In this document: positions 1-9,174 of the stretch, one piece after another
Numbering within the stretch: position 1 is the stretch's first letter
Layout of the letters: the number at the start of each line of letters is the position of its first letter
Assembly: GCA_944393215.1 (NCBI GenBank)
Contig: CALXZL010000002.1
Location: forward strand, 141,226 to 205,225
Direction: 5' to 3'
DNA from: an uncultured Alphaproteobacteria bacterium
GTDB taxonomy: Bacteria; Pseudomonadota; Alphaproteobacteria; RF32; CAG-239
DNA length: 64,000 nt
Made by a program: the position numbers and the translations under genes
Notes under the pieces: model-generated
Told to the model about the DNA's origin: nothing
Database searches by the model: none
What the model saw: the letters and a program-made list of their open reading frames with translations, nothing else

Positions 1-66
1 GGATAAAATCCGGATCATAAACATCAAGGCATCTGGCTAAAAATTTTTCAGATACAGTATCCAACA
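1..66 (-). CDS. Partial CDS (N-terminus only; the gene continues past the left window edge); hypothetical protein
   Basis: The reverse complement of 1..66 reads ATG TTG GAT ACT GTA TCT GAA AAA TTT TTA GCC... (MLDTVSEKFLARCLDVYDPDF...) and stays open to the window edge. It lies downstream of the DUF262 genes on the same strand. Confidence 0.3.
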
Positions 67-214
67 TTTTGATAATACCACATTTTTATTTAAAAAAAAT
101 AAATTCTTTATAAGATTATGACTCAAAAAAATCATTTTTTAAATGGATATTCTATAGTAGCCTAATGAGAACACAAACAAATACTCAAGCATTTTAAGGA
201 TGTCTCTTTTTTTT

Positions 215-2464
215 TCACAATTGAATCAATCCTCGATTATGAAGAAATTTGCGCAAGAGTTCCACTCTGTTTTTATAATCCATTTTTTTAGCATGATCGT
301 AAAAACCATCCACGACAAAAGGTTCATTATCTTTATCATACAAAACGAAGGCATCATTTTTACAAACAAGATAACAATCTTTATAAATCAATCGCTGTCC
401 ATAATCATTCCGATCAAGATGATCCGAATCAACAATTTTCAAATAAGGTAAAAAAGTACTATGAGGAAACATGCGTGATCCTTCCAAAACCAGGTACAAA
501 AACGGATTTTCTTCCTGTTTTTCATTACTTAATTTTCCTTGTCCTCCGGAACGAAATTCCGGATATTTAACATAGTAATAACACCACTTATATTGGTTTT
601 CCATCTCGCACCGGTCCATAAAATCCTGCGCAATTTGACCTAAAGAATCATTAGTAAACGGACCTTTTTTGAGAAGTTCTACTAAAATTCTATGTGTATC
701 TTCAAAACCGGTATTGGCACTTTTGTGAAATAATGAATTCCATGCAGAATCATTTTTGGGCGTTCCGATCTGATATCTACCGTTTGCTTCTTTCTGCCCA
801 TAAAAATCAATCGACATCAAAGCACAACTTATTTTATCCAAATCACACTTAAACAAGGAAATAAAATTATCGGCAAGATCCAAATTATCTAAACCAACAA
901 TACTAACCTGCCCCTTCAAACGCGGATGATCCTCCAACTTATATAAATTTTCTTGCAACTCGGGCTTTTCAGACAAAAGTTTTATTTTTGCTTTTTCTTC
1001 CTCAATCTGATGCGTATTAAAACCGTTTTTCGAATTCGGAAGATTATCCAAATTTCCGAACCGAATAATATAATTAACTTGTTTTAAGATAGCAGGAATA
1101 CGGCTTCTGTTGCGTCTTTCTGCCAATTCATCATCCGAATTGGAAATCAAATTATGAACAATACGAATTCGGCGAACAAAATCATCATATGTAATTTTAT
1201 CTTTATGCATCAAATAAAAAACAATAGCATATAAAAGCACCATCCTATTCAACGGAAATTGGCGCACATTTCCATTCGTCGGAGAAAAAGAGAACAAACA
1301 ATCTTCAAAAATATCAATTTTACCGGAAACAACAATTTTTTGACCATTAGTCTCATAGTTTCCCTTATCAGAAGAAATGTTGGTCATAAAAGAATTTAAA
1401 AATTCTTTAGGCGTTTGCTTATTATCCAACTCCCGCCAAACATCAAAACTATTTTCTAAAAAGAGAAGATTTTGTTTTGCAGATGCACAATCTTTAGAAA
1501 AATAGGATGAAATAAGGGTAAAATCATCGGCATCTGCTTTTCTCTGACCATATCTTTTGTAACCGATAATATCACAAATAAAACGAAAATAATTCAAAAA
1601 CAAATCATCAATAAGCCCTTTAAATTTTCCTTGCTCATCAATACAATATTTCCATAAAAGATCAGTCCAGTCTCCATCTATTTTTTTTATAATGTTTTCG
1701 GAAATTCTTTGATTATTTTCTTTATTTGTTTTTTGATCAACTTCCTTCAACTGACGTTCAAACTCGGCTTTAAATTGCTCAAAGTTGGTCAAAGGTTTGC
1801 CACGAGAGTTCATTTTAATGTAAAGATCATCGGTCAATCCCATTTTCTTCATGGGTAAGAAATAAAAGCTTATGTTTTTTAATTTTTCCCATAAACCGAA
1901 AACTTCTGCAAAGCGTTCATGAATAGCTTCCAACATCGTCAACATTGAGCTGATGGTCGGATCACTGTGCCAAGTTTTGTAAAACCAAGGTTGATCAATA
2001 ACGGCAGATTTAATATCTTGGGAAGAATATGGCAGATGAGAAATTAAGTCAGCACAAAAACATTTGGAAGAATAACGCGTTTCATAAGTAAATTTAGATA
2101 AGAAATCTCTTTCCTCGGGCAGCTTGTTTTTTCCGCTTTCAAGAGCATAAGCATTAGCGGCATAACAATACAAAAGGAAAAGCGTTGTCAACCTTTGTTG
2201 TCCGTCAAGAGGAGTCAAAATACCTTCGGCATCTATGTCCCCATAAATAAAATCAAGGCAAATCGAAGATTCTGTTACTGTTACTGCCTTATATAAAGAT
2301 TCTAAAAAATGTTTACGAACATTGGTAACCGTAATATTATCGCGTCCTTGAGCATAATCTCTTTGAATTTGAGGAATAACAATTTTTTGAATTTTGAGCG
2401 GTTGATCATCATCCGAAAAATCAGTATTAAAAATGTCGGGAAAGGAAAGTAATAAAGCAGACAT
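215..2464 (-). CDS. DUF262 (ParB-like/GmrS-like) domain protein, 749 aa. The C-terminal half has no recognisable His-Me (DUF1524) motif.
   Basis: N-terminal motifs IPQIQRDYAQGR and LDGQQRLTTLFLL are the DUF262 hallmarks (I-P-x-x-QR-x-Y-x-W and DGQQR-L-T). It sits in tandem with a second DUF262 gene on the same strand. Confidence 0.7.
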   Translation of the reverse strand: MSALLLSFPDIFNTDFSDDDQPLKIQKIVIPQIQRDYAQGRDNITVTNVRKHFLESLYKAVTVTESSICLDFIYGDIDAEGILTPLDGQQRLTTLFLLYCYAANAYALESGKNKLPEERDFLSKFTYETRYSSKCFCADLISHLPYSSQDIKSAVIDQPWFYKTWHSDPTISSMLTMLEAIHERFAEVFGLWEKLKNISFYFLPMKKMGLTDDLYIKMNSRGKPLTNFEQFKAEFERQLKEVDQKTNKENNQRISENIIKKIDGDWTDLLWKYCIDEQGKFKGLIDDLFLNYFRFICDIIGYKRYGQRKADADDFTLISSYFSKDCASAKQNLLFLENSFDVWRELDNKQTPKEFLNSFMTNISSDKGNYETNGQKIVVSGKIDIFEDCLFSFSPTNGNVRQFPLNRMVLLYAIVFYLMHKDKITYDDFVRRIRIVHNLISNSDDELAERRNRSRIPAILKQVNYIIRFGNLDNLPNSKNGFNTHQIEEEKAKIKLLSEKPELQENLYKLEDHPRLKGQVSIVGLDNLDLADNFISLFKCDLDKISCALMSIDFYGQKEANGRYQIGTPKNDSAWNSLFHKSANTGFEDTHRILVELLKKGPFTNDSLGQIAQDFMDRCEMENQYKWCYYYVKYPEFRSGGQGKLSNEKQEENPFLYLVLEGSRMFPHSTFLPYLKIVDSDHLDRNDYGQRLIYKDCYLVCKNDAFVLYDKDNEPFVVDGFYDHAKKMDYKNRVELLRKFLHNRGLIQL

Positions 2465-2493
2465 CAGTTATTCTCCTGTGTAAGAAAAATCTT

Positions 2494-4338
2494 TTACTTC
2501 AAATAAGGTTTAAGGATTTTGTGCATGGCAACAATATAGGCTTTACGATCTTTTTCACCCCAAAAATGAATTTGAGTATCTTTTGCCGGAGTATAAGATT
2601 TCAAAAACACCATTTGCGTACAAAACGGAATATAATTTCCCTCTCGAATTAATTTAATAACAATATTTCGCTTAACATCAAAAGCCGCATTATTAAGGGC
2701 GGCATTGTCGGCAACATTTAAAAGTGCCATGTTAGCAAGAGAGTGCATATTTTCCATCTTTCCCGGTCCGTTTAAAATATTAACAACCTTCGTTCTGATT
2801 TCCTCAAATTCAACTCCGGATAACTTCGGATTTTCAACAGCTTTTTTCATACGCTCAATCAATTCAACATTTTTAGGCGCGACCGTTTTAATAGAGAGAA
2901 TATGCTCGCTCACCCAAGAATGCCAAGCCTTAATATCGACCAAGCCTTTAGAATGTTGGGCATGAATATGCTCCAAACTCCAAACCACTTTATTTTTTTT
3001 GTTAAATTTAAATTTATCAAACGGAAATCTTTGCGATTGTTCTGCCAATTTGCGAACGGATTCAACATTAAATAACAAAAGCAAGCGTATGATTTTTTTA
3101 CAATCTTCGATTTTTTCATAGCTCAGCTCGGCATAATCTTGAAGAGTGTTAGGATCATTTTGAGTAATACGAATACTTTTTTTAATGGCATCATTTAGCT
3201 TAGATAAAAACTCCTTTTTGGTTTTATCTTTTGCCAATTTAAAAATATCTTGCAAGGATTTCTCTTGAGTATAAATGAGATAACCTATTTTATGATACAG
3301 TTCATGATCTTCATACCAATCTTTAAGCATCCAAAAAGCATTCTGAATTTCCAACCACAGCTTTGCCAAAGAGCAGGTGTGGCTATCAAATTTAAAAAAT
3401 GTAAAATATTTATCTCTTTCGTTAGGTTTCTTTTCGGCAATCAAATCCAAAAGCAATTCAATTTTGGTAGAATAATTGCTGCTGCAAGAATTAGATAAAA
3501 AATACCAAAAAGATTCATTATGCAGCTCTTGCTCAATCATATCCCATTGCAGCGCAATTTCTTGTTTGGTCAAATCGGGCAACGAATTTTTCCGTTCACC
3601 GGAATAAAGCTCATGCGATTTACTCAAAAACATAGCCTTAACCAGCTCGGCAGAGGTAAGCGGAATTTTTCCGATATTCAAGCGAGCGAACAAAGATATG
3701 GGATCCTCATTTTGGTCAACTTCATACCAAATAACCTGAACATAGTTTTCAAAATATGTCTTGAGCGTCTGCGGATCACGATCATATTTTTCATCAGCAA
3801 ACCAACCTTTAATCGCATCATAGGCTCGCTTCATAAAATAAAAATCGATATTTTCAGTATATTTTGTATCATTACTCTGATCAATCTCTTCAAGAAATTC
3901 TTGAGATTTATCTCTGGTTTCATACGCAATGGAAAAAAGCGGATGAGGAGAAAAAGGAAGAACTCTGTTCAAATATTTATAAATCAGGAAAATGGTTGTC
4001 AAACGCTGTTGTCCGTCAACCACTTCTAACAACTTGTCTTCTTTTCTTTTAACGACAATCGGCTGCAAACAATAACTATTTTCACCGTTTTGATAAACGT
4101 CATTAAGCAAGCGAATAACATCATCTTCCCCCCATCGATATCCGCGCTGATAGGAAGGAATAAAAAATTTCCCCTTAATTTCAGCAACTTTTATTGTATC
4201 CAAAACAATATTATGAGTAAACATCTTAACCATCCCAAACCAAGAAATAAGAATTATAATATGGACAAATATCACAAACTTCAAGGGCAAAATTCTAAGC
4301 CGTTTGAAGCGTTGCAAGCAAAGGTTCTTTTTTGGCAC
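2494..4338 (-). CDS. GmrSD-family protein (N-terminal DUF262 plus C-terminal DUF1524 His-Me finger nuclease); putative modification-dependent type IV restriction enzyme. The true start is probably the internal Met near 4233 (MVKMFTHN...).
   Basis: IPSYQRGYRWGEDDV and VVDGQQRLTTIFLI give the DUF262 domain. The C-terminal KVVWSLEHIHAQHS followed by conserved Asn residues (LLNVADNAALNNAAF) gives the DUF1524/HNH-like motif. Confidence 0.75.
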   Translation of the reverse strand: MPKKNLCLQRFKRLRILPLKFVIFVHIIILISWFGMVKMFTHNIVLDTIKVAEIKGKFFIPSYQRGYRWGEDDVIRLLNDVYQNGENSYCLQPIVVKRKEDKLLEVVDGQQRLTTIFLIYKYLNRVLPFSPHPLFSIAYETRDKSQEFLEEIDQSNDTKYTENIDFYFMKRAYDAIKGWFADEKYDRDPQTLKTYFENYVQVIWYEVDQNEDPISLFARLNIGKIPLTSAELVKAMFLSKSHELYSGERKNSLPDLTKQEIALQWDMIEQELHNESFWYFLSNSCSSNYSTKIELLLDLIAEKKPNERDKYFTFFKFDSHTCSLAKLWLEIQNAFWMLKDWYEDHELYHKIGYLIYTQEKSLQDIFKLAKDKTKKEFLSKLNDAIKKSIRITQNDPNTLQDYAELSYEKIEDCKKIIRLLLLFNVESVRKLAEQSQRFPFDKFKFNKKNKVVWSLEHIHAQHSKGLVDIKAWHSWVSEHILSIKTVAPKNVELIERMKKAVENPKLSGVEFEEIRTKVVNILNGPGKMENMHSLANMALLNVADNAALNNAAFDVKRNIVIKLIREGNYIPFCTQMVFLKSYTPAKDTQIHFWGEKDRKAYIVAMHKILKPYLK

Positions 4339-5182
4339 ATAAATCCAAAACCGTTTGCCCGTACCGGTTTTTTAACTTAACATCCGCTCCAAATTTTATC
4401 ATCTGGCGGATAATTTTGGCGGCGGCATCCAGATCCGGCTTCTGGAACAATATTTTTCCAAAGCCGGAATTGCTTCCGACAGGAAAATCTTTGGCATAAG
4501 TCTGACAAAAATACATCAAGGCGGTATTTCCGATATAGTCCTGACGATTTATATCTAGCCCATGTTGAATAAAAAGCCGGAAACAATCATCAATATAATC
4601 CTGATTCCAATCACCGGAACAACTAAGCATTTTCGGATTAAGAATAAAAGCCACAAAAAGAGGATAAACATCCGAAGCCGTCATCACACAGCTTTTAACA
4701 TAATCCGGTTTTGCAGAAAAGCGACAAATCATTTCGACGGCTGTTATGCCGTTATTATCGGGAAGATTTGGATTCGCACCATATTTTAAACACACGGGAA
4801 TAATGTCATAATTAAACCGATTATAAGCAGCATAATGCAATATATTGTGCCCGTAATTATCCTTTGCCAGAATATCACTGCCGTTGCTCAACAAAGTTTG
4901 CAACATTTGTTCAAAAGCATCCGGTGTTGCCGGAGAACGTCCGAGAGCAATCAAAGCCGTTTCCCCGTCTCTGCCTTGTTTCCGGACATCCGCACCATGA
5001 TCAATCAAAAAACGCACCACGGCAGGATCTTTATTAAAACGGCAAGCAGAAATCAAAGACGTTGAACCGTCGGAACCAATCTCATTAACATCTACCCCTT
5101 CCGATAACAATTCAATCAAATCCTTTGTGCCTTTTTTCATAGAGCAACAACGTATAAACGTAACGATTTTTGGTTCCGACAT
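4295..5182 (-). CDS. Ankyrin-repeat protein, 295 aa, with at least 4 ANK repeats
   Basis: Repeated G-(A/S)-D/N-V/P-N...DG.T.L..A motifs: GVDVNEIGSDGSTSLISAC, HGADVRKQGRDGETALIAL, YGANPNLPDNNGITAVEMI, FGADVKLKNRYGQTVLDLC. It is on the same strand as the DUF262 genes and 62 bp upstream of them. Confidence 0.8.
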   Translation of the reverse strand: MSEPKIVTFIRCCSMKKGTKDLIELLSEGVDVNEIGSDGSTSLISACRFNKDPAVVRFLIDHGADVRKQGRDGETALIALGRSPATPDAFEQMLQTLLSNGSDILAKDNYGHNILHYAAYNRFNYDIIPVCLKYGANPNLPDNNGITAVEMICRFSAKPDYVKSCVMTASDVYPLFVAFILNPKMLSCSGDWNQDYIDDCFRLFIQHGLDINRQDYIGNTALMYFCQTYAKDFPVGSNSGFGKILFQKPDLDAAAKIIRQMIKFGADVKLKNRYGQTVLDLCAKKEPLLATLQTA

Positions 5183-5197
5183 AATTCCGCCTCCTTA

Positions 5198-5329
5198 TTT
5201 CATCACTGGTTCATAAAGAGCCGGACCGAGTTCTTTTTGCATTACTTTTATGGCATCAAGAGCATCTCTCATGGTGCGATAAGGTGTTGGTAAAATTGTA
5301 CCGTTTATTTTCACATACCAGAACATGTT
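5198..5329 (-). CDS. Small hypothetical protein of about 43 aa (MFWYVKINGTILPTPYRTMRDALDAIKVMQKELGPALYEPVMK)
   Basis: A GGAGG Shine-Dalgarno sits 8 nt upstream of the internal ATG. The ORF ends 13 bp before the ankyrin gene start. The longer 73-aa ORF in the track lacks an RBS. Confidence 0.3.
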
Positions 5330-5555
5330 TATATTCCTCCAAAAGTTAAACAAAAAAAGCAGACATACAAAGAACGACAACGACAAGAGAACTGATTTTT
5401 TTTGCAACAACGTCATTAAGTTGAATAGCGGAATCGACTCTTTCTAATATCGTTTTTGTGATAATATAATATTCACACATTTTTTATATTGTCAAGGATT
5501 ATTTTTTTTAAAAATTTTGTAGTAAAAATCGTTATATTCAATAGAAATAAACGTT

Positions 5556-5590
5556 GACTTATTTCCAAAGTAAATTATATTAAACATATT
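5556..5590 (+). promoter_or_regulatory. Putative sigma70-type promoter (TTGACT, 16-nt spacer, TATATT) followed by an AAGGAG RBS for the 5606 operon
   Basis: ttgacttatttccaaagtaaattatatt is read directly from the sequence 20-50 nt upstream of ATG 5606. The region diverges from the ankyrin/DUF262 operon. Confidence 0.35.
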
Positions 5591-5605
5591 AACAAAGGAG
5601 AAAAG

Positions 5606-6628
5606 ATGAACAAAATTAGAGAAAACTGGTGCAATTTCATCCTCAATGAAGGTATTATTCCGGCAAACTTAACCCGTAAATTAAAAGATTATTCCAATAC
5701 TCAAAACACCTTTTGTGTTTTGCTGGCAGACCTTCTGAAAAATCAAGAAAACGCCGATCTGAACAAATACTCTCTCCTCCCGGAAAAAGAAATTATCAAA
5801 AAATCTTTTAAAACCGATACCGAATTAATGAATTGGCTCAAATCTGTGAAGGAACTGCTGTCTGTCATCCAAACTTATGCCGACAAAGAAGCCCCCTTCA
5901 CAGAAATTGTTGATGAAGCTTGCCGAAGCTTTATCAAAGTTTGTAACTTGGTTTCAGATGATGTCAAACAACGCTATCTTGACACATCAGATAACAAATA
6001 TCTTTACTCCCCGAAGGAAGGAACAGATATCAAGCAAGAATTCAAAATCTATCTCAACGCCCAAAATTACAGCCCCAACACCATAAACAGCTATACCAGC
6101 GCCATCAATCAAATAAGCACTCTGCCAAACATTGAATATGATTTATGGGAGATAGCCGATTCTGATGAAATGACGCGATTAATTAATCTTTTAAACGCCA
6201 ATCCCAACAATTTATATGATTCGTTTAAGGAAAAAGATTCTCTGAGCCGAAACATATTTTCCAATTCTCTCAAAAGATATGCCGAATTTTTAAAAGCCAA
6301 AAAATTGAATCGTCCTTATAAAACAGAAAAAAAGCCGGAGAAAAAAATCGGAGAATATGTCCAAAACGAATTTTGCTACATTTTACAAAGCAACAAAATC
6401 TCTGAATATGAAATTCAACGCCTGATGGATATGAATTACTGCAAACAAATTTTCAAAACCAGAGGACAACAATATCCGATATTGGCAACGGAAGAACGCG
6501 CCCGAGACCGATACTATAAACAACCGCTCAAAATCAGAAACAAAATTTACTATATTTCTTCTCAATGGTATGATGACCAACTACCCTACTTAAAGACATG
6601 GCTCAAAGATCATGGTATCGTCATATAA
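5606..6628 (+). CDS. Hypothetical protein, 340 aa, with no recognisable domain. First gene of a two-gene operon with the UvrD-like helicase fusion.
   Basis: A strong RBS (AAGGAG) precedes the start. The stop codon TAA 6626-6628 lies inside the RBS of the downstream gene (ATG 6639), indicating translational coupling. Composition is Lys/Asn-rich with no P-loop. Confidence 0.6.
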   Translation: MNKIRENWCNFILNEGIIPANLTRKLKDYSNTQNTFCVLLADLLKNQENADLNKYSLLPEKEIIKKSFKTDTELMNWLKSVKELLSVIQTYADKEAPFTEIVDEACRSFIKVCNLVSDDVKQRYLDTSDNKYLYSPKEGTDIKQEFKIYLNAQNYSPNTINSYTSAINQISTLPNIEYDLWEIADSDEMTRLINLLNANPNNLYDSFKEKDSLSRNIFSNSLKRYAEFLKAKKLNRPYKTEKKPEKKIGEYVQNEFCYILQSNKISEYEIQRLMDMNYCKQIFKTRGQQYPILATEERARDRYYKQPLKIRNKIYYISSQWYDDQLPYLKTWLKDHGIVI

Positions 6629-6638
6629 GGATAATAAT

Positions 6639-9068
6639 ATGGTAGAATATTCACGTGAACAACTTTGGAAATTAATCAAAGACTTTGTCAAAGACTCTTG
6701 TTGGAAATATTACGGTTCCGTAACCGATTTAAAACAACATATATTTTACAAATCAACAAGCTTATTTGGCTCATATAACAAATTTAAGGATGATACAACC
6801 ACGTGGCTATGCTTTACCGGACATGGACAAGAAATTAAAAACGGTATCTATATCAGCATTTATATAAACAGACATCGTAACGGGAACCAATTTATTTTAG
6901 ATAACATCGAACTGTGTTATGCCTCCTCGGAAAAAATACAATCTGATCTTTGCTGGAATAAAGATAATCTCCCCAAAACCAAATCAACCAATTTTCCGCA
7001 ATCACATTGTGCGGCAACATACACAAAAAAAGAAATTGAGAGTGATATATGCAAGGAAAAATTTTTAAATAAACTTGACTTCATGATCAAAGAATATAAA
7101 GAAATTTTCACACCCAAAGAAGCAGATACAATTTACAAACCCGGAGATATCAAAATTGATAAAATTGCGTCGAATAAATGCATGACTTGGGTAGAAGGCA
7201 AACTGGGTAAAGAATTGACGGCACAACAAAAAAAAGTTGTTGGCTTAGATTATGATAAAGAAAAAATAAATGCCGCATTGGTAATTGCCAGTGCCGGATG
7301 CGGCAAAAGCACAACTTTACTTGGACACACCTTACACTTAATTGCCAAAGAAAAAATCAAACACTCCGACGATATATTGCTCGTTGTTTTCAATAAAAAA
7401 AATCGACAAGAACTACAAGAAAAAGTAAACGGCTACGGCTTTGAACATCTCGGAGCTGCAATACACACCTTTCATAGCCTTGGATTAAGTATAATTCAAA
7501 CCCAAAATCCGGAGATAAATTCCATAGATCCGGGAGATTCTGAAAATCCATTTAACAAAGTTCTCTCTCAATATACCGACAGCAACACCAAAAAAGGCGG
7601 AGATGACTGGATAAAAAACCTCTGGCGTTTCGGTACGGATATTAATGCCCCTAAAAGATCTGAAGACATTTATCAAAATGAGCTTTCCGATGATAAACTG
7701 AGAGAAAAAATTTGTCTTTTGGAAAACGCCGGATATCCTATCGGATACAAGAATCAAGAAGAAGACATTACCAAACTCCGATTACAAAATTTTTGCACTT
7801 TATACGGGATAGAGCCCACCATACAACTCCACCCCTATCCATGTTTTAAGATTCAGAATAAAATAAAAATATATTGGTCAATAAAACCGATAAATTTAAA
7901 AGAAAATGATATTTTCATCAAAGAATTCACACCAAACACAATGACCGAGCTTCGAGAGAAATTAGAGGCAAAAAATATGAGCTTGAACCCCATATCGGAA
8001 AATACGCTCAAAAGTGCCATAACAACAAGCATACTCCGTGCCAGAGGTGATATTTTCAAAAGAACGGCACAGTTTTTCATAACTGTTTTCAAAATAAAAT
8101 ATCCGAACGGGGATCAAACAAAATTAGAAGATATCAGAAAAGAACTATTGCAGAAATATACCGATACATTGCAACAAAACCATATTAATGCATTTTTTGA
8201 TCTGCTAATTCCCATATATACCGATTATCAAAATGAGTTGAGAGATAATTGCCAAATAGATTTTAATGATATGCTTAATTTAGCCATAAAATATATAAAA
8301 GAAGGAACCGTCACCAGAAAATATAAATATATTTTGGTCGATGAATTTCAAGATGTTGCAAAAGACAATTTTGAGCTGTTGCAAGCCCTGCAAGAAAAGA
8401 CCGGAGCCAAACTGATGTGCGTGGGAGATGACTGGCAGTCCATATATGCATGGAGAGGCAGTGATTTAGAATATTTTGAGAATTTTAAGAAATATTTTCC
8501 GAACTCAAAAAAACTATTCATTACCGAAACCTTCAGAAACGGAGAACGCCTTGTTAAAACCGCAGCCGAATTTGTCAGACAAGATAAAGAATTAAACGAC
8601 AAACAACCAAGTTCCAATCAACCGGAAACCTTGTTGATTCCGTTTTATTATAATTCTCGTAACATAAAAAAACAGTGGGAAAAACTAAAAGAAGACATTA
8701 ACACAAAATATCCGCAGAAGGAAATTGCATTTTTAGGCAGATACCACGCAGATAATAATATATCGGGCACTCAAATACCTTCCGAACATTTTATAACAAT
8801 GCACAAATCGAAAGGGCTGGAAAAAGATGTGATTGTTATTCTCAATTTAAAAAATACACCTCCCTACGGTTTTCCGAGTTCCGTCAAAGGAGATATTGTT
8901 TTAGAGACCTTATATGAAAACAGAGAAGAAAAAGCCCAAGCCGAAGAAAGAAGACTATTTTATGTGGCATTAACCAGAGCAAGAAATGCATGTTATTTAT
9001 GGATTCCGGAAAATAACACCTCCGAATTTGTACAAGAAATAATGGAAATTTACAAAAAAACAAATTAA
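6639..9068 (+). CDS. UvrD/REP-type SF1 helicase fused to an unknown N-terminal domain of about 210 aa. The ORF track gives 6612..9068; the start at 6639 has the RBS.
   Basis: Walker A ALVIASAGCGKSTTLL, motif II YILVDEFQDV, motif III MCVGDDWQSIYAWRGSD, and the C-terminal MHKSKGLEKDVIVIL and YVALTRARNACYLW are canonical UvrD-family motifs. The N-terminal region (MVEYSREQLWK...FTGHGQEIKNG...) matches nothing I recognise, but a D...ExK pattern (KDD...QEIK) is compatible with a PD-(D/E)xK or NERD-like nuclease fold. Confidence 0.8.
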   Translation: MVEYSREQLWKLIKDFVKDSCWKYYGSVTDLKQHIFYKSTSLFGSYNKFKDDTTTWLCFTGHGQEIKNGIYISIYINRHRNGNQFILDNIELCYASSEKIQSDLCWNKDNLPKTKSTNFPQSHCAATYTKKEIESDICKEKFLNKLDFMIKEYKEIFTPKEADTIYKPGDIKIDKIASNKCMTWVEGKLGKELTAQQKKVVGLDYDKEKINAALVIASAGCGKSTTLLGHTLHLIAKEKIKHSDDILLVVFNKKNRQELQEKVNGYGFEHLGAAIHTFHSLGLSIIQTQNPEINSIDPGDSENPFNKVLSQYTDSNTKKGGDDWIKNLWRFGTDINAPKRSEDIYQNELSDDKLREKICLLENAGYPIGYKNQEEDITKLRLQNFCTLYGIEPTIQLHPYPCFKIQNKIKIYWSIKPINLKENDIFIKEFTPNTMTELREKLEAKNMSLNPISENTLKSAITTSILRARGDIFKRTAQFFITVFKIKYPNGDQTKLEDIRKELLQKYTDTLQQNHINAFFDLLIPIYTDYQNELRDNCQIDFNDMLNLAIKYIKEGTVTRKYKYILVDEFQDVAKDNFELLQALQEKTGAKLMCVGDDWQSIYAWRGSDLEYFENFKKYFPNSKKLFITETFRNGERLVKTAAEFVRQDKELNDKQPSSNQPETLLIPFYYNSRNIKKQWEKLKEDINTKYPQKEIAFLGRYHADNNISGTQIPSEHFITMHKSKGLEKDVIVILNLKNTPPYGFPSSVKGDIVLETLYENREEKAQAEERRLFYVALTRARNACYLWIPENNTSEFVQEIMEIYKKTN

Positions 9069-9140
9069 CACTGTGAGATTTTCTTGCTCCGCAAATTTTA
9101 CAGGCTGGTTGCCGACAAACAAACAGAAGCCCTCCACAAA

Positions 9141-9174
9141 AAAAATCCCTTCCGCTTTGGAAAGGGATTTTTTA
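9141..9174. terminator. Bidirectional rho-independent terminator between the helicase operon and the tRNA
   Basis: The hairpin tcccttcc-gctt-tggaaaggga is flanked by an A-run on one side and a T-run on the other. Confidence 0.6.

Follow-up and report, generated by a model that had tools for sequence, protein, structure and literature searches.

The window analyzed here is a stretch of 64,000 nucleotides (nt) from an uncultured gut alphaproteobacterium (GenBank assembly GCA_944393215.1, contig CALXZL010000002.1, positions 141,226 to 205,225 of the forward strand, numbered from 1 in what follows). The list of open reading frames (ORFs) and the strand sequence place four co-oriented genes on its minus strand: in the direction of transcription, a small ORF of 43 amino acids (aa), an ankyrin-repeat gene, a gene encoding DUF262 and a predicted DUF1524 domain, and a gene encoding a 749-aa protein with DUF262 only. 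The last two genes are the subject of this analysis. They are called grwA-like and grwB-like after the GrwAB system of Vibrio cholerae, to which they are compared below, and are laid out as follows.

2494 to 4233, minus strand: grwA-like gene, 579 aa from the ATG at 4233 or 576 aa from the ATG at 4224; DUF262, helical linker and predicted DUF1524 His-Me nuclease.
3628 to 4176, minus strand: DUF262 domain of the GrwA-like protein, residues 20-202, with QR (Q29, R30), DGQQR (73-77, at 4003 to 4017) and FxxxN (F182 to N186).
2668 to 2982, minus strand: predicted DUF1524 His-Me region of the GrwA-like protein, with WSLEHIHAQ (418-426; L420 to H424 at 2962 to 2976), a helical insert of about 75 aa, N501 to N510 (2704 to 2733), N515 and FDVKR.
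2465 to 2493, minus strand: spacer of 29 nt between the two genes, with a Shine-Dalgarno sequence, AGGAG, 5' of the grwB-like start.
215 to 2464, minus strand: grwB-like gene, 749 aa, with an N-terminal DUF262 domain and about 500 family-specific aa.
1760 to 2389, minus strand: DUF262 domain of the GrwB-like protein, residues 26-235, with QRDYAQGR (34-41), DGQQR (87-91, at 2192 to 2206) and YIKMN (215-219).
218 to 1627, minus strand: C-terminal module of the GrwB-like protein, residues 280-749 (about 470 aa), with RRIRIVNNLIQNS (431-443), LEDHxxLxGQ (510-519), LFHKSAN (578-584), WxYYYVKY (627-634) and FRPGxYGK (637-644).

An earlier annotation, made from the letters of the window alone and called here the original prediction, described two tandem DUF262 genes of 614 and 749 aa. 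Both ORFs are where it placed them, but the first was given as too long and is really one of 576-579 aa. The longest upstream ORF (2494 to 4338, minus strand) opens with a GTG at 4338 and would encode 614 aa. Judged from the alignments and gene calls, this ORF is over-extended and the true start is the ATG at 4233 or at 4224, because the homologues begin there in the family alignment, because the gene calls in same-species contigs (those with an identical RpoD) are 576-579 aa long and because a near-identical contig (97%) has a 1-bp indel within 4234-4294 that would break the longer frame.

The GrwA-like protein matched the Pfam family GmrSD_N/DUF262 with an E-value of 5e-32, and the PADLOC profiles HEC-06, SspE and Orf5 matched the same domain. 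When 43 relatives were aligned, the DUF262 motif residues (Q29 and R30, D73 to R77, and F182 to N186) were invariant, and so were WSLEHIHAQ (418-426), N501, D509, N510, N515 and FDVKR in the predicted nuclease region. The family GmrSD_C matched 43 of the 43 relatives at E <= 0.01. At the family level, the DUF1524 assignment, predicted from sequence, is solid. That the first protein carries both DUF262 and DUF1524, as had been proposed, is borne out by these profile matches throughout the family and by the invariant motif.

The 749-aa protein gave one Pfam match, to GmrSD_N/DUF262 (E=4e-22, residues 26-235). Its DUF262 motifs were invariant in alignments of 35 and 65 relatives, and in the same alignments the family was conserved end to end, with a mean column identity of 58-69%. 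Twelve polar residues of the C-terminal part were also invariant in this family (R432, R434, N438, S443, Q486, E490, K493, E511, D512, T590, Y630, and Y634). A search with residues 280-749 against 1.84 billion representative proteins returned 525 hits, counted as representative clusters. Since nearly all of these proteins are around 700-800 aa long and the match begins at residue 250-300, the C-terminal module appears to occur only behind a DUF262 domain. A search of a phage collection found no homologue of the 749-aa protein.

No nuclease was detected in the 749-aa protein itself with Pfam, PADLOC, or NCBIfam, and neither GmrSD_C nor any HNH family of Pfam was found among its relatives (0 of 35), even at E <= 1. 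When the profiles of the two families were compared with hhalign, only the DUF262 domains aligned (probability 95%, 32% identity), and the C-terminal halves compared alone showed no similarity (probability 0.1%). The hidden Markov model (HMM) search of the relatives and the profile-profile comparison thus both agree with the original prediction, in which no His-Me motif was found in the C-terminal half of this protein. LEDH (510-513) was considered as a His-Me strand and rejected: H513 varies, being N or L in some members, and this segment is coil, without a beta-hairpin, in the AlphaFold2 (AF2) model. That model is confident over the protein, with a mean predicted local distance difference test score (pLDDT) of 83.

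GrwAB is a two-protein anti-phage restriction system found in VSP-II of the V. cholerae WASA lineage (A1552VC_00274-75; Nat Microbiol 2025, PMC12137116); its GrwA has 603 aa and its GrwB 821 aa (bioRxiv 10.1101/2024.11.23.624991, supplementary tables). The comparison with the window pair covered residues 1-400 of the V. cholerae proteins. In BLASTP, the upstream protein was 38% identical to V. cholerae GrwA over 408 aa (E=3e-70) and 44% identical to the GrwA hit from Phocaeicola vulgatus over 418 aa (E=6e-101). The 749-aa protein was 41% identical to V. cholerae GrwB over 291 aa (E=2e-53) and 38% identical to the P. vulgatus GrwB hit over 427 aa (E=3e-78), the latter match reaching its residue 431. 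The pairing was reciprocal-best: each protein was closest to its own Grw counterpart, and cross-matches as well as matches to TgvA and TgvB (see below) were weaker by 50 or more orders of magnitude (E 1e-4 to 1e-18) and lay within DUF262. The motifs correspond almost word for word, GrwB having IPILQRDYAQGR, LDGQQRLTTLFLLHW, and LYIKMNARGKPLTTFENFKA and the window protein IPQIQRDYAQGR, LDGQQRLTTLFLLY, and LYIKMNSRGKPLTNFEQFKA.

The residues needed for defence in V. cholerae could also be located. Each of the substitutions R81A, H431A, N521A, and N530A in GrwA and R86A in GrwB abolishes defence (PMC12137116). The counterparts of the GrwA sites are R77, H422 or H424, N501, and N510 of the GrwA-like protein, and the counterpart of GrwB R86 is R91 of the 749-aa protein; all are invariant in the family alignments. 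In the H...N...N pattern of the GrwA-like protein the two Asn residues are 9 apart, the same spacing as in GrwA H431/N521/N530 (PMC12137116). We consider it very likely that the two genes encode a two-protein GmrSD-like type IV (modification-dependent) restriction system of the GrwAB family, located in a low-GC (guanine plus cytosine) island beside a tRNA gene of this uncultured gut alphaproteobacterium.

Several points weigh against this assignment. The match of the GrwA-like protein itself to GmrSD_C/DUF1524 is sub-threshold (E=0.0067, 16.8 bits against a cut-off of 23 bits, residues 496-526). The AF2 model of its nuclease domain is of low confidence, with a pLDDT below 50 at residues 399-432 and 489-559, and the beta-beta-alpha fold of this domain is a prediction from motif and HMM evidence. 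The C-terminal halves of the V. cholerae proteins, including the GrwA His-Me region, fall outside the direct alignment. The identity to the characterized proteins is about 40%, so that the target specificity may differ, and V. cholerae GrwB is 72 residues longer than its counterpart (821 versus 749 aa).

The distribution of the pair was followed in a locus survey, in which one genome per species was scanned for relatives of the 749-aa protein. This gave 28 loci outside the species of the window, spanning Actinomycetes, Clostridia, Gastranaerophilales, Atribacteria, Victivallaceae, Kiritimatiellia, Bacteroidetes, Bacilli, and Selenomonadaceae. In 27 of them, the gene immediately upstream on the same strand is a relative of the nuclease gene; the exception (L014) has no detectable grwA-like gene and carries a stop codon in its grwB-like gene. 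The paired ORFs abut or overlap by 1-4 nt in most of the other loci. The flanking genes are unrelated between loci and include both housekeeping genes and a Mu-like transposase. In a locus from a Bacteroidetes metagenome-assembled genome (MAG) (L029, 66 to 11447), the pair lies inside a type I restriction-modification (RM) operon, in the order hsdM, hsdS, a 310-aa ORF, the pair, and hsdR. On a Peptoclostridium megaplasmid, insertion sequence (IS) elements flank a copy of the pair, which RefSeq labels only as two "DUF262 domain-containing proteins". Both the embedding in a type I RM operon and the IS-flanked plasmid copy fit the idea of a mobile defence cassette. Metagenomes, chiefly those of gut and rumen, contain thousands of relatives of each protein. 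Given that 27 of 28 loci from unrelated phyla share this two-gene order, the pairing is not due to chance; read from these sequences, the pair is a conserved cassette and not a decaying duplicate.

Besides L014, three loci show signs of decay in the cassette: L019 and L038 have a grwA-like gene broken into two ORFs, and L023 has a broken grwB-like gene. Assembly errors could account for some of these four cases. A metagenomic contig (L001, 8001 to 17112) carries a GrwAB-like pair that is 52-54% identical to that of the window, followed by the genes found downstream in same-species contigs, namely those for a META-domain protein, for RNase HII, and for an N6_N4 methyltransferase that bears a RAMA domain. 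It follows that, in related organisms, the cassette may exist as divergent alleles close to one and the same chromosomal site.

A mechanism can be proposed by analogy with V. cholerae. There, neither GrwA nor GrwB alone gives protection, a complex of the two is supported by AlphaFold 3 (AF3) modelling, and the two-gene cassette functions in E. coli (PMC12137116). GrwAB restricts Queuovirinae, with 7-deazaguanine in their DNA, and Tevenvirinae, with glucosylated hydroxymethylcytosine (glucosyl-hmC), and the phages that escape it are dpdA mutants (PMC12137116). The GrwA-like and GrwB-like proteins would likewise act together, probably as a complex, and the pair would recognize incoming DNA with hypermodified bases. 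Binding or hydrolysis of nucleoside triphosphates (NTPs) at both DUF262 NTPase/sensor sites, one per protein, would then license cleavage, and the single His-Me nuclease site, on the GrwA-like protein, would cut the modified DNA. For this host, we thus infer complex formation, dependence on DNA modification, and anti-phage activity from the characterized system. The suggestion of a split sensor/nuclease pair in the original prediction comes close to GrwAB, in which both proteins are needed (PMC12137116), although the "degenerate" part of the same suggestion finds no support.

One alternative, which we hold to be unlikely, is that a single-chain GmrSD was duplicated, that the second copy lost its nuclease and is now decaying or serves as a decoy or shield, for example against the phage inhibitor IPI*, and that the first copy works alone. 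The DUF262 domain common to both proteins in the hhalign comparison would fit such an origin, and an anti-phage-inhibitor role has been proposed for TgvA (PMC11411939). The AF2 model of the 749-aa protein is also collinear with full-length structures of the GmrSD family: in Foldseek it aligned along nearly the whole of DndI (probability 0.99) and of BrxU (probability 0.33). Nevertheless, no decay is seen. The protein is conserved over its full length across phyla, its C-terminal residues include invariant ones, the same architecture recurs in all 525 representative clusters or nearly so, and no sequence similarity is left between the C-terminal halves of the two proteins. In V. cholerae, the failure of GrwA alone to protect and the loss of defence in GrwB R86A point to an active NTPase partner and not to a passive decoy. 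The end-to-end conservation, the intact NTPase motifs, and this essential counterpart speak against the idea, also raised in the original prediction, that the 749-aa protein is "degenerate" or a "decoy".

The same structural comparison suggests, weakly, that GrwB-type proteins may descend from a complete GmrSD and have kept part of the scaffold without the active site. A further reading, possible but on balance doubtful, is that the GrwB-type partner is a diverged GmrSD paralogue, in which the DUF262-linker-C-terminal layout of SspE, DndI, and BrxU was kept, the His-Me site was lost, and extra C-terminal domains were gained. GrwAB would then be heterodimeric, with one catalytic subunit and one subunit for recognition or regulation, in contrast to the homodimeric single-chain enzymes, and the clade described here, about 40% identical to V. 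cholerae and widespread in gut anaerobes, could recognize a different DNA modification.

The GrwAB assignment was also weighed against TgvAB, the other two-protein system of V. cholerae (VPI-2, VC1767-66), in which TgvA has DUF262 only and TgvB has DUF262 and DUF1524; it targets glucosyl-hmC DNA and both proteins are required (PMC11411939). The domain content is the same, with one DUF262-only protein, one with DUF262 and DUF1524, and DGQQR in both (PMC11411939), and one relative of the pair, L029, lies within a type I RM operon as tgvAB does. The gene order, however, is opposite: the DUF262-only tgvA comes first, whereas the nuclease gene comes first in the window. We compared the window pair by BLASTP and phmmer with the first 400 aa of the proteins of four pairs (Table S5, PMC11411939). 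Only the DUF262 core aligned, over 70-210 residues at 26-32% identity, with E-values of 1e-6 to 1e-18 for the upstream protein and of 4e-6 at best for the 749-aa protein, which was no closer to TgvA than to TgvB. The matches to GrwA and GrwB are better by 50 to 80 orders of magnitude. A TgvAB-type system is thus very improbable here, and membership was rejected on gene order and sequence.

Upstream of the GrwAB-like pair lie the two other co-oriented genes and the elements that could transcribe them.

4234 to 4294, minus strand: spacer of 61 nt between the ankyrin stop and the grwA-like start, with one weak promoter-like match, TTGAAG-17-TATTAT (4284 to 4256), 9 of 12 positions.
4295 to 5182, minus strand: ankyrin-repeat gene, encoding 295 aa (281 aa if a later start is used); matches Pfam Ank families.
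5195 to 5326, minus strand: small ORF, 43 aa, MFWYVKINGTILPTPYRTMRDALDAIKVMQKELGPALYEPVMK, preceded by a strong Shine-Dalgarno sequence and separated by 12 nt from the ankyrin gene downstream; its longest reading is 5416 to 5195, 73 aa.
5466 to 5495, minus strand: best sigma-70-like promoter match, TTGACA-18-TATTAT, 11 of 12 positions (a consensus match only), upstream of the 43-aa ORF and the ankyrin gene.

The 43-aa ORF is called in all same-species contigs, and no family match was found for its 73-aa reading. The original prediction had named a terminator or promoter between the ankyrin gene and the DUF262 genes as evidence that would count against it. No terminator-like hairpin was found in the 61-nt spacer (RNA fold z-score of -0.96), and the promoter came down to the one weak match listed above; promoter-like matches are common in this AT-rich region (36 found versus 24 expected). 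Read-through from the predicted promoter at 5466 to 5495 into grwAB is plausible in this strain.

The ankyrin gene was present in same-species contigs only and was absent from 28 of the 28 loci outside this species. In addition, the same-species strain L035 carries a clean deletion of 2,244 bp (junction 15164/15165) that corresponds to positions 4521 to 6764 of the window. Lost with it are the 5' end of a helicase gene, the gene for a 340-aa protein, the divergent promoter region, the 43-aa ORF, and all but 73 codons of the ankyrin gene. Both DUF262 ORFs are kept intact, at 576 and 737 aa; the 61-nt spacer is retained and the upstream promoter is lost. Compared with the window, L035 is 97.3% identical in the region of the pair and 99.9% identical on the rpoD side. 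The ankyrin gene proposed earlier as the partner of the restriction module thus appears to have no functional partnership with it, because it is absent from the 28 outside loci and deleted in L035 with the pair intact. These data argue against partnership; the ankyrin gene and the small ORF are species-specific neighbours and not part of the system, although they may share a transcript with the pair. A four-gene functional operon with the ankyrin protein as an accessory or regulatory subunit has hardly any probability left: the single strand, the spacer free of a terminator-like hairpin, the strongest promoter match upstream of the small ORF, and the arrangement kept in same-species contigs speak for it, but conservation within a species carries no weight, the 28 outside loci without the ankyrin gene have mutually unrelated flanks, V. 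cholerae GrwAB works in E. coli as two genes, and the L035 deletion takes out promoter, small ORF, and three quarters of the ankyrin gene but leaves both DUF262 ORFs intact.

The window is chromosomal, with rpoD, dnaG, gyrA, uvrA, and a resistance-nodulation-division (RND) efflux pump, and its GyrA shares 88% identity with the GyrA of the gut MAG "Azospirillum sp. 47_25". The GC content is 0.29-0.41 across positions 1 to 9000 (about 9 kb, the pair included), against 0.34-0.46 in the next 5 kb. Two further features belong to this region.

5606 to 9068, plus strand: divergent two-gene operon, the ORFs overlapping by 17 nt; a 340-aa protein, then an 818-aa UvrD/helicase IV-like protein.
9175 to 9251, minus strand: tRNA gene with a CAU anticodon, called tRNA-Met but possibly tRNA-Ile2, just downstream of rpoD, its 3' end facing the island.

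The low GC content and the tRNA gene fit a horizontally acquired island. No integrase was seen in the part of the island within the window, whose edge lies before the left end of the island. The 340-aa protein of the divergent operon gave only weak matches, to the SAM-like N-terminal domain of integrases, and no homologue of it was found in a plasmid collection. The 818-aa helicase has about 200 N-terminal residues without assignment, and the PADLOC profiles GajB and RTasHel match its helicase core; neither GajA nor a reverse transcriptase was found near it. This operon is possibly a second, independent candidate for defence within the island.

Homology to the same-species contigs L033, L035, and L038 ends at position 192, just past the stop of the 749-aa gene. 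Past that point these contigs have a META-domain gene and then RNase HII, and positions 1 to 192 of the window hold instead a different minus-strand ORF that starts near 67 (MLDTVSEKFLARCLDVYDPDFI...) and continues beyond the window edge. What follows the pair downstream thus differs from strain to strain. The same-species contigs L031 and L032 (12160 to 13142, window about 9769 to 9799) have an additional stretch of about 1 kb inserted between rpoD and the tRNA gene; this insertion holds a DUF1847 gene and an ORF of 132-141 aa, with about 30 bp of window sequence on both sides.

The kind of system is already known, and GrwAB homologues have been listed in Bacteroidales and Campylobacterales by a published survey (bioRxiv 10.1101/2024.11.23.624991). 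This analysis adds uncultured gut Alphaproteobacteria and many other phyla to the known range of the GrwAB family, assigns a function to a very common gene pair labelled in RefSeq only as "DUF262 domain-containing proteins", and presents the cassette as one that moves as a self-contained two-gene unit. The role of the C-terminal 500 or so residues of GrwB is a question for the whole family and not for this locus.

Three known groups can be set beside the pair. The single-chain GmrSD family (Eco94GmrSD, BrxU, SspE, DndI, and HEC-06) has the full architecture and motifs also found in the GrwA-like protein, and SspE, DndI, and BrxU are the closest structures to the GrwB-like model; a sequence search of the PDB turned up no solved structure closely related to either protein. 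Each of these enzymes works as a single protein, as a homodimer where structures are solved, whereas the GrwA-like family is almost always paired with a nuclease-less partner. No sspABCD or dndBCDE genes were seen among the genes examined in positions 1 to 9300 and ten large ORFs elsewhere, the window not having been scanned systematically. TgvAB is likewise a two-protein GmrSD-like type IV system with DUF262 and DGQQR in both proteins and DUF1524 in one, but the C-terminal region of its DUF262-only partner differs from that of the 749-aa protein and tgvAB sits in a type I RM operon, which the window pair does not.

GrwAB differs from the window pair in several details. The GrwA-like protein has 579 aa versus 603 aa, and its helical insert, which separates the catalytic His from the first Asn, is shorter by about 11 residues. 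A gap of 29 nt lies between the genes here, whereas those of V. cholerae overlap by 1 nt (bioRxiv 10.1101/2024.11.23.624991). The window pair has no Shedu (VcSduA) neighbour but lies next to the ankyrin gene and the helicase operon, and its host is a gut alphaproteobacterium. Nevertheless, the plan of the locus is that of GrwAB: two adjacent genes, of which grwA, the one with the nuclease, precedes grwB, as in V. cholerae (PMC12137116); a GrwA in which a helical linker joins DUF262 to a DUF1524 His-Me nuclease, an order predicted also for the GrwA-like protein; and a GrwB in which DUF262 is followed by a long C-terminal region without a known domain or nuclease motif, as in the 749-aa protein.

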